A stretch of DNA of 63,857 nt, the filler included, from Reclinomonas americana ATCC 50394 (Eukaryota), in the NCBI GenBank assembly GCA_048213135.1. It is 15 parts of 15 records of this genome, joined end to end, with 100 filler letters (N's around TTAATTAATTAA, not from the genome) between each part and the next. Parts side by side here need not be neighbours in the genome. Positions count along the whole stretch, not along the records: positions 10,074 to 14,197 come from AFZH01024010.1; 14 more parts are not named here. One strand, written 5' to 3'. The notes under the pieces are model-generated. The model did not search any database. It saw nothing but the letters and a program-made list of their open reading frames with translations, and had not been told where the DNA came from. This document shows positions 10,368 to 13,300 of this stretch, piece after piece. Position numbers and translations under genes: made by a program. Each line of letters opens with the position of its first letter. The stretch's first letter is position 1.

Positions 10368-13300
10368 ATGCGTCGGAGCGGAGGTCGTGTTGCGCCGACT
10401 TTTGAGGAGGTCGTGCAGCAATTCAGTGAGGCCCAACGGCACAACAGCAGTGGTGACTATGCCACTGCCGCTCCCCTTTACGGTACCTGCTGGAGAGAGT
10501 TTGAGGCCTTGTGCGGCCCCGATGACGATGCATGGACTCTTGTGTGTGCACACAACTACGCGAGTGCACTCTTGAATTCAGGAGATGCACAGAGCGCATT
10601 GCCGGTGTACGAGGATGTGTTGGAGAGGAGGAAGCGCGTGTCGGGTGCGACTCACAAGCAGACATTGAGAACGGCTTCCTGCATGGGCAATGCGCTGAGG
10701 CAGGTCGGGCGGCATCGTGAGGCCATTGCGTTGCTGCGCGACACGGCAGAGAAGCAAGAGCGCTACGGGGCCAAGGAGGACGTCCAGGATGTTTTGTATA
10801 CGTTGCACGAATTGGCACTGGCGCTCGATGACAACAAGGAGTACGAGGAGTCGATCCGGATTTTGCGCGACGTGGTGCGCCGGACACGTGAAGTGCTGGG
10901 CGAGGATCACCCTGAGACGCTGCTGAGCATGCATAACATGGCATACTTGCTGTTCAACGCAGGCGGCTTGGCCAATCTGGAGGAGGCGTTGGAGCTCTTC
11001 GAGGAGGTCTTGCCGCTGCGTCGTCGCGTGCTGGGACCGGACCACAAAAGCTCCAAGAACACAGCTGCCAGCATCACCAACACCCGCGCAGCCATAGCGG
11101 CACTCCGCAAGGCTTCGTCGACGACTTCCCCATCCGGTACGTCAGTGGCGCACACTTTTGATTCATCCTCCACACTCTTGTTGTTCATCAGCGCCTGCAG
11201 CTTCCTCTGCTTCTGCATCGGCTCCACCAGCAGTGCGTTCTCCGGTGAGACAAACCTGACAAGTGCCGAAGCTTGACCAAACACTTACCAATCTGCGCAC
11301 CAACCAGCCACCACCGGTGAACTCGACCCGCGAACAGCAGCTGGAGGCAGCAAACGCACAACAACAACACGACTTGACCGAGCAGCAGCGCCTCGTGCAG
11401 CAGCAGACGCAGGAGTTGACCACGCTTCGCACCAAGCAGTCACAATCGCAGGCCACCATCTCCCAGTTGCAGCGAGACCTGGCGCAACAACGGGCGACGA
11501 CACAGCAGCACGAAGGAACCATCGCGCGATTGCGGCGCGAGGTGGAAGAGCAACTGTCAGCGGTCCGCGAGCGGGCCGCCCAAGTGGATGCGGCGCAGCA
11601 ACAAGTGCAGCGACGCGATGCCACAATTACGCAACTGCAACGTGAGAAGAACGATCAGCGAGCCACTATCTGCGAGCAGATTGCCCAGGTGGAAGCAGCA
11701 CAGCAGCGGGCGCAGCAACACGAGGCCACCATCACGCAACTGCGGTGCGAGCTGGAGACGCAGCAAACCACTATCCGCGAGAGGACCACGCAGATGAATG
11801 CAGCACAGCAGCTGGTGCGACAACACGAGGCCACCATCGCGCAACTACGGAGCGAGGCGGAGGAGCAGCGACAGCGAGCCGGGCAGTTGACCGCTCAATT
11901 GGAGGCAGCACAAGAGGCCGGTCGAAGCCTGCAGCTGGAGCTGGAGGAGCAACGAGCACATGCACAGCTGCAAGAGGCAGGGGCCACTGGATGGTACAAC
12001 CGTGCTCGTGAGATGGAGACAACAGTGGTCAACCTGCGCCAGTCACTCGCCGCCAACCAGACCACGATTCACCAGCTGCGCACTGCGCTCTCGCATGTGC
12101 AGCCACAGCGAGAAGCCGCTATGCAGCACCTGCGTGAGGAATGTGCGGCTCTTCGCGTCTCCTTGGAGCGAATGGACGAGCAACGCCAGCAAGAATACGA
12201 CCGCGCAAAGCGACTGGCCGCAGACTTGGCCACCGCGCAGCACGAGCTCAACCATCGTGGTGAGTGCGAGTGAGTGTGTGGCGATGACTGCTTGTGCGCT
12301 GTCGCTCATGTGCAGTTTTGCAGTTCCGCTCACGGCCTTTACCTGGGAGCAAATCGGCGCCATGACAAATGGGTTTGCTCGTCGTCTTGGCACGGGTGGA
12401 CAGGGAAGCGTGTTTTCTGGCACGTGGAAGGAGCAGCGGGTGGCTGTGAAGGTGTTTAACAGCGACGCGCCCTGGTGCATCGAATCGTTTTCCAATGAGG
12501 TGAGCACTGCGTGAGGGAGGACAAGGTGATCATCTCCATGTAACGTGCTGGGATGCAGTTGGAGAAACTGAAGAGTGTGACGGTGCCTGGTGTGGTGCGC
12601 ATGATTGGTTTCGCCGAGTCGGACCGTGGAGAAAAGTGCATTGTGCTGGCGGCCATGAGGTTGGTGGATACCGAGATTTCTCTTGTTGCGTGTAGTTCTT
12701 GTACTGCGTTGTTGCTGATGTGCAGTTTTCTTTTGATCATTGACAAGTGAGCACAACCTCGAGCACCGGTTGTTTGAGTATCAAGCACTCGGATTGCCCG
12801 TCATGGCCATCGAAGAACGCATGACATGTTTGCTTCGATGCTCGGAGATCGTGGCGGCGTTGCACAGGTGAGGCAGCAGCTGAAGTGGGACGTCAGATGC
12901 ATGTGCTCGTTTCTCATCGTCTCTTGTTGTGCACAGAATGGTTTGTGTGCGCTGTTGTGCAGCTTGTTGTTGATGTCGTTTCTCACTCTCCTTCCCTCTC
13001 ACTGTCACTGCTTTCTGTTCTCCCTTTCACCCAGAATGGTGAGTCTCCGTGAACTCGGTTGTGAGCGATATGACCTCGTTTATTCACCATGATTCGCAGT
13101 CATTCACCGCGACCTGAAGCCCGCCAACATCTTGTTTGACGAGCGTGGCCAGGCATGCATCTCAGACCTGGGAATCGCGCACTGGTTCCGCACCGGCGGG
13201 GTGAGTGTGCTCTCTCCCTTCCACGCCTTCCCACCGATAGTCCTCACGGGTGTGGCGATAAGTAGACACACCTGTCGGTGCAGTTCGCCGGCGACCACGA

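Follow-up and report, generated by a model that had tools for sequence, protein, structure and literature searches.

The window analysed here is a stretch of 63,857 nucleotides (nt) of DNA from Reclinomonas americana ATCC 50394 (assembly GCA_048213135.1), and the subject of this analysis is a split protein kinase gene located in a 4.1-kb piece of it, at positions 10074-14197. This contig appears to be eukaryotic and protist-like, and is likely to carry one gene. The model of this gene, obtained by three-frame reading and spliced translation, contains 11 exons and 10 introns, and runs for 956 codons without an internal stop from the ATG at 10329 to the stop codon at 13911-13913. The same piece contains a pair of AATG sites, which lie in the 232-nt interval between two kinase exons, here called K3 and K4. 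The main conclusion of this work is that two internal exons, each with a length of 4 nt, probably supply the coding sequence between K3 and K4, and that both are needed for the reading frame. We assign this reading a probability of about 0.65. The interval and the exons on its two sides contain the following features.

12748..12867, plus strand: kinase exon K3, ending with A-L-H plus AG (phase 2); defined from the sequence, three-frame reading and spliced translation
12868..12936, plus strand: intron A, 69 nt; donor cag/GTGAGG with 8 of 9 matches to U1, acceptor CAG with 73% pyrimidine, CTCAT 20 nt before the 3′ end
12937..12940, plus strand: candidate micro-exon 1, AATG; donor atg/GTTTGT with 6 of 9 matches, of the same type as the donor gag/GTTGGT at 12660
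12941..13034, plus strand: intron B, 94 nt; acceptor CAG with 86% pyrimidine, the best of the gene, CTCAC 33 nt before the 3′ end
13035..13038, plus strand: candidate micro-exon 2, AATG; best acceptor of the gene together with a consensus donor, atg/GTGAGT, with 8 of 9 matches
13039..13099, plus strand: intron C, 61 nt; acceptor CAG with 68% pyrimidine, TTCAC and TTTAT 13-17 nt before the 3′ end
13100..13200, plus strand: kinase exon K4, with the catalytic loop HRDLKPAN and DLG; Pfam Pkinase match with E 7.6e-08 and matches to kinases in PDB

The letters and coordinates given for this region in the original prediction were all correct. Exon K3 reads CAC AG up to position 12867 and is followed by gtgagg, exon K4 reads TC ATT CAC CGC GAC from position 13100, and between them lie cag/AATG/gtttgt at 12937-12940 and cag/AATG/gtgagt at 13035-13038, with introns of 69, 94 and 61 nt. 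Direct joining of K3 to K4 is out of frame, joining through one AATG is also out of frame, and the inclusion of both restores the frame. The expected frameshift upon skipping was also observed in the translations, in which a stop codon is reached 7 codons on when one AATG is retained and 13 codons on when there is none, in each case before the catalytic loop. Counted from ALH, the stop codon of the direct K3-K4 join comes after 17 codons. When both AATG sequences are included, they form together with the AG of K3 and the TC of K4 the residues R-M-N-V ahead of IHRD, which make up the turn that links helix E to the catalytic loop. On sequence grounds, both AATG units have the properties of a coding micro-exon, which are a length of at most 15 nt, canonical 3′ and 5′ splice sites, and a restored frame.

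To compare the quality of the splice sites, all GT and AG dinucleotides between positions 12780 and 13099 were considered. The data showed that three donors, at 12868 (8/9), 13039 (8/9) and 12941 (6/9), reach 6 or more of 9 matches to U1, and that every other GT has at most 5 matches. The pyrimidine tracts are richest in front of the acceptors used at 13035 (0.86), 12937 (0.73) and 13100 (0.68, a value equalled by a GAG at 13044). Hence, the route through both 4-nt exons (4+4) consists of the three best donors and the three best acceptors of the interval. These sites are similar to those of the whole gene, in which 10 of 10 donors have G at position -1 and 6-8 of 9 matches to U1, and 9 of 10 acceptors are CAG. 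A branch-like YTNAY motif is located 13-33 nt from the 3′ end in introns A, B and C, and is present in 9 of the 10 introns. The other seven introns of the gene are 59-88 nt long, and the 69, 94 and 61 nt of introns A, B and C agree with these lengths, in contrast to the 232 nt of an undivided interval.

When limits derived from the gene were applied (introns of 50-110 nt, donors with at least 6 of 9 U1 matches and G at -1, and acceptor tracts with at least 45% pyrimidine), the real interval contained exactly one complete path, which was the in-frame 4+4 route. In dinucleotide shuffles the same limits gave any path in 51 of 2000 cases and an in-frame path in 18 of 2000, and under two stricter settings the counts were 2 of 2000 and 0 of 5000. 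Two CAG-N4-GT patterns with an identical 4-mer were found in 16 of 20000 shuffles of 232 nt. The more demanding pattern CAG-N4-GTRAGT occurs four times in the window against 1.02 expected, and none of 100 shuffles reached four. The three further sites are located at 11283-11295 (minus strand), 20937-20949 (plus strand) and 36516-36528 (plus strand); the one at 20937 is antisense to likely minus-strand coding frames, and there was no sign of further micro-exons among these other sites in the window.

The remaining exons of the gene model are given below. Here and for K4, the Pfam matches were obtained exon by exon.

10329..11136, plus strand: exon 1, TPR region; frame, Pfam TPR_10 E 3.4e-34 and TPR_12 E 1.3e-28, donor ccg/GTACGT
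11201..11244, plus strand: 44-nt exon, Ser/Ala/Pro-rich linker; derived from the model only, links the frame of exon 1 to the coiled-coil exon, with introns of 64 and 63 nt
11308..12259, plus strand: long exon, Q-rich and coiled-coil-like, about 300 residues; open frame, weak Pfam matches to coiled-coil families
12324..12499, plus strand: kinase exon K1 with the glycine loop, the VAVK lysine and the helix C Glu; translation and a weak Pfam kinase match at profile positions 4-39
12559..12659, plus strand: kinase exon K2; frame continuity in the model
13284..13546, plus strand: kinase exon K5, from the end of the activation segment to helix H; translation and 42 library matches at E <= 0.001, which were kinases wherever tested
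13616..13913, plus strand: last exon, with kinase subdomain XI, a C3HC4 RING and the stop codon; Pfam zf-C3HC4_3 E 4.3e-11 and RING pattern

The spliced translation retains the glycine loop, VAVK, HRDLKPAN, DLG and Y-A-D-P-Q motifs intact, and the combination of profile match and catalytic motifs identifies a protein kinase domain (Pfam PF00069 / PF07714). Exon K4 alone matched the Pfam Pkinase profile with 32.5 bits (cut-off 31.7) at profile positions 120-149, and it matched 419 kinase sequences in PDB at E <= 0.01. Exon K3 alone had no Pfam match and no PDB match at E <= 10. The C-terminal RING of C3HC4 type (PF13920) scored 42.9 bits against a cut-off of 27, with its Cys/His pattern at 13707. 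Judged by its motifs, among them the RLK/IRAK-like Y-A-D-P-Q, the kinase is of a kind that we take to be TKL/IRAK/RLK-like. In the coiled-coil exon a motif of the type H-E-A/G-T-I-x-Q-L-R recurs every ~30-40 residues, which suggests internal repeats. The original prediction had named the protein a receptor. This label had to be given up, because no membrane or hydrophobic segment was found outside the kinase core; a 19-residue Kyte-Doolittle scan of the 956-residue model, which measures simple hydropathy only, had its maximum mean of 1.32 inside the kinase, and the N-terminal part consists of TPR and coiled coil. These data suggest that the protein is probably cytosolic, and that it would combine TPR, a coiled coil, a TKL/IRAK-like kinase and a C-terminal RING.

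The residues added by the two micro-exons agree with the architecture of kinases at this place. The claim that the subdomain spacing is normal held, as the product contains H, three residues, two hydrophobic residues and HRD, and K4 starts at position 120 of the Pkinase profile, which corresponds to the consensus spacing of Pfam kinases as far as this start position shows. The window also contains a fragment of a second, unrelated kinase gene at ~39972-40562 (minus strand), which encodes L-H-R-R-G-I-T-H-R-D within one exon; the distance from H to HRD is the same there, and there is no intron at this place. Among library matches with loops of the same spacing (nine unique), the position of the N of R-M-N is occupied by G in four, K in two, R in two and N in one, and never by a hydrophobic residue. 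The kinase differs from Src in its other motifs, which are presumably those of a TKL/IRAK/RLK-like kinase. In the Src kinase domain itself, R-M-N occupies the equivalent position: it precedes two hydrophobic residues and HRDL, it lies as far from the end of helix E as in the present gene, and the spacing from H to HRD is identical (PMC6857567).

Several observations weigh against this reading. The limits on splice sites rest on seven or eight other introns of one gene, and they were partly set after the sites had been seen, which applies also to the stricter ones. With loose limits, open paths were found in 1467 of 2000 and 1934 of 2000 shuffles. The bare pattern CAG-N4-GT is common in dinucleotide shuffles of 232 nt, in which at least one copy occurred in 8275 of 20000 cases and at least two in 1766 of 20000. 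With GTTTGT, micro-exon 1 has one of the weakest donors of the gene. At the K3-K4 join, relatives contain anything between 3 and more than 8 residues, and a profile derived from 33 kinase domains among the library matches did not separate the routes, as it gave 154.9 bits for a route with exons of 10 and 4 nt (10+4), 153.5 bits for 4+4, and 152.7 bits for an 8-nt exon at the second site. The further scores were 152.0 bits for a 14-nt exon, 151.5 for an 8-nt exon at the first site, 151.3 for a 44-nt exon and 149.4 for a 5-nt exon. The order of intron removal proposed below is what we infer from the distance between the sites. Finally, the view that the two micro-exons form an obligate pair was retained in part. 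Both are needed for the full-length kinase-RING product in what is the best gene model, but the statement that only their joint inclusion keeps the frame was too strong, because 36 of 114 GT-AG paths are in frame when introns of at least 40 nt and at most three internal exons are allowed, which leaves 35 other open routes under these loose rules. Since both the bare pattern and in-frame routes are common, the signal resides in the quality and the spacing of the sites.

The alternative that survives best, which we nevertheless regard as unlikely, is that K3 and K4 are joined by another short route that uses the same acceptors, possibly alongside 4+4 as alternative 5′ splice sites. In the 10+4 route the first exon would extend over 12937-12946, with a donor GTGCGC at 12947, and would be followed by 13035-13038, while a single 8-nt exon could occupy either 12937-12944 (donor GTGTGC at 12945) or 13035-13042 (donor GTCTCC at 13043). 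All these routes are in frame and free of stop codons, the 10+4 product scores 1.4 bits above 4+4 on the profile of related kinases and the 8-nt forms are within 2 bits of it, and the variable length of this segment in relatives, with 3 to 8 residues or more, would accommodate them. On the other hand, the donors GTGCGC, GTGTGC and GTCTCC have 4, 4 and 2 of 9 matches to U1 and lack G at -1, while all ten donors of the model have this G and at least 6 matches. The 8-nt routes, moreover, leave introns of 155-167 nt, compared with 59-94 nt elsewhere in the gene, they strand either the consensus cag/AATG/gtgagt or a strong acceptor unused inside an intron, and they place Val where relatives with the same spacing carry G, K, R or N. 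The serious rivals share the acceptors and shift a donor, and micro-exon 2 is thus better supported than the precise 3′ end of micro-exon 1.

If both 4-nt exons are used, their splicing may be explained as follows. With introns of 59-94 nt, the splice sites would probably be paired across introns, as in intron definition. Large early splicing complexes cannot bind both of two sites that are 4 nt apart (PMC4674806, citing Black 1991; Dominski and Kole 1991). As such sites are not occupied at once, introns A, B and C would probably be removed in succession. Each removal would make the 4 nt part of an exon of normal size, which would provide an ordinary junction for the next step, and a missed step would probably result in a messenger RNA (mRNA) with an early stop. 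A model that combines intron definition with recursive splicing has been proposed for the 1-nt exon of Arabidopsis APC11 (PMC4674806). Folding of the region pointed to one more element.

12929..12952, plus strand: predicted RNA hairpin of 9 base pairs, interrupted; -12.1 kcal/mol, z -3.05, with 3 of 200 shuffles folding as well

In this hairpin, which was found after the fact, micro-exon 1 and the AG and GU of its 3′ and 5′ splice sites lie in the loop or next to it. The hairpin is also present in the fold of a 258-nt interval, which as a whole is unremarkable compared to shuffles (z 0.68), and no comparable fold was found at micro-exon 2 (z -0.79).

A different proposal, which goes back to the original prediction, accepts the 4+4 model and adds regulation to it, and we consider it improbable. 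It assumes that the inclusion of the micro-exons is conditional, and that their skipping or mis-ordered splicing produces a frameshifted mRNA, which could be degraded or could encode a TPR-coiled-coil protein without the catalytic loop and the RING. This would fit the stop codons reached 7 codons on when one exon is skipped and 13 codons on when both are, and a hairpin lying over micro-exon 1 and both its splice sites could gate their use. In its full form, which we also hold to be improbable, splicing would follow an obligatory order, and the cell would exploit the failing of one or the other step, for which the hairpin might act as a gate, as a frameshift switch that converts a TPR-kinase-RING enzyme into a truncated scaffold or a target of decay. 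Micro-exon 2, however, has the strongest sites of the gene, which is what constitutive use would predict, the post hoc hairpin has no counterpart there, and both the human 4-bp exon of MPC1 (PMC9929638) and the 1-nt exons of plants (PMC4674806) are reported to be constitutive.

The least probable explanation, which we consider very unlikely, is that of a dead gene or a misassembly. In this case the whole 232-nt interval would be a single intron, the frames of K3 and K4 would really not match, either because the gene has recently become a pseudogene or because the contig contains an indel error, and the AATG sites would be due to chance. The short 4.1-kb contig in a fragmented assembly and the frequency of CAG-N4-GT alone in shuffles would allow it, but the other ten exon pieces keep a frame of 956 codons in which every kinase and RING motif is intact, and an intron of 232 nt would have 2.5 times the length of the longest other one. 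If one base were removed at the junction, I-I-H-R-D would follow directly on ALH, and an in-frame full path of such quality arose in only 18 of 2000 shuffles.

The preferred 4+4 reading also raises the question of why the two exons are identical. Within the window, the 9-mer CAGAATGGT occurs only at the two micro-exon sites. Local alignments of the introns gave z 2.1 for A against B and z -0.1 for B against C, and nothing common was found in them beyond CAGAATGGT. The identical letters may simply follow from the codons (A-ATG-AAT-G) and the splice-site context, or they may be the trace of an old duplication. A duplication of AATG as the target site of an inserted element, in an intron gain of transposon type, was considered and rejected by reasoning as unlikely, because the state before the insertion would have had 4 nt only and would have been out of frame. 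Other likenesses were observed among the introns of the gene on the plus strand: TGTCGCTCATG is common to the intron before K1 (12300-12310) and the intron between K5 and the last exon (13593-13603), and CATGATTCG is common to intron C (13088-13096) and again the intron between K5 and the last exon (13600-13608). Local alignments of introns of the gene reached z values of up to ~5, in a comparison where the boundaries of four introns other than A, B and C were off by 1-10 nt. These shared motifs could represent a consensus for the branch site, or could indicate that the introns have a common origin.

To find relatives of the gene, single exons were compared with sequence collections. Exon K5 had no orthologue among 1.84 billion protein representatives, where its 42 matches were all distant and many contained several kinase domains; the best match had 41% identity over 33 residues, and one match reached E <= 1e-10. 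Eight of the proteins matched by K5 were scanned, and these were multi-kinase proteins without a RING or TPR partner. The last exon had no match in longer proteins, and a metagenome scan with K5 found no related loci. The scan with exon 1 gave one 2-kb contig, in which 34 TPR residues were matched, and no orthologue. The exact 46-nt pattern of K4 was not found among the genome contigs.

The window is made up of pieces (n=16) separated by linkers of the form 44 N + TTAATTAATTAA + 44 N. The pieces in 1-9973 have a guanine-cytosine content of 0.59-0.64 and long unbroken frames, such as that of 1128 amino acids at 2994-6380, which gives them a bacterial look, while the remaining pieces look eukaryotic, with short GT-AG introns and runs of (CT)n or (CA)n, so that the assembly is a mixture. 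Scans of the window with Rfam and for tRNA genes gave no matches. An NFACT RNA-binding domain (E 1.1e-28) and ribosomal protein S18 (E 6.3e-14) were matched at 34762-35844 (minus strand) and 22248-23525 (minus strand), and are of conserved eukaryote-type or organelle-type. At 20990-21160 (plus strand) a unit of ~60 nt is repeated three times in tandem (…ccttgtca(t/c)gtacgaatgcagagagcgagaagtgc…); these units are located downstream of a probable minus-strand gene and have long (CT)n runs on either side.

If the 4+4 reading is true, the identical pair would be among the shortest adjacent coding exons described, and it would mean that a microbial eukaryote with short introns can splice two 4-nt exons just 94 nt apart. 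It would also mean that gene finders would miss the pair, and would either call the gene broken or truncate the kinase. Such a gene would offer a small, naturally occurring substrate on which the successive use of splice sites separated by 4 nt could be studied. No new class is opened here, since the literature already describes exons of 1-5 nt as well as micro-exons that lie next to each other. The unusual points, provided that the gene model is correct as seems fairly probable from the sequence, would be the direct succession of two 4-nt exons, their identical letters, and their position at the entry to a kinase catalytic loop in a microbial eukaryote. No 4+4 pair turned up in literature searches, none of which was aimed at showing its absence.

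The closest single example is the constitutive 4-bp micro-exon of human MPC1 (PMC9929638). Like the exons proposed here, it is an internal coding exon of 4 nt, a length which is not a multiple of three, it is obligatory for the frame, and it has strong flanking intronic signals. It differs in being a single exon of a vertebrate gene, with long introns and exon-definition regions, whereas here two exons follow each other between introns of 61-94 nt and are known from the DNA letters. In plants, 2,398 micro-exons of at most 15 nt have been reported, most of which were unannotated, and a rice gene contains adjacent micro-exons of 5 and 12 nt validated by reverse transcription-polymerase chain reaction (PMC8831610). 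Exons of 1 nt were described in plant APC11 and VPS55 (PMC4674806, PMC8831610). The plant micro-exons are similar to the pair proposed for this gene in that they are ultra-short, are missed by annotation, and have canonical sites with strong GTRAGT donors (PMC4674806, PMC8831610). They are also conserved across plants and verified at the RNA level, in contrast to the pair described here, which consists of 4+4 nt with identical letters and is a prediction. The third comparison is with the ratchet points of Drosophila, in which an acceptor and a donor are also juxtaposed and a new 5′ splice site appears at the junction after splicing (PMC8605326, PMC6110457). As described there, ratchet points leave no bases in the mRNA and divide very long introns into shorter parts, while in the gene analysed here 4 nt would be kept each time and the introns are short.

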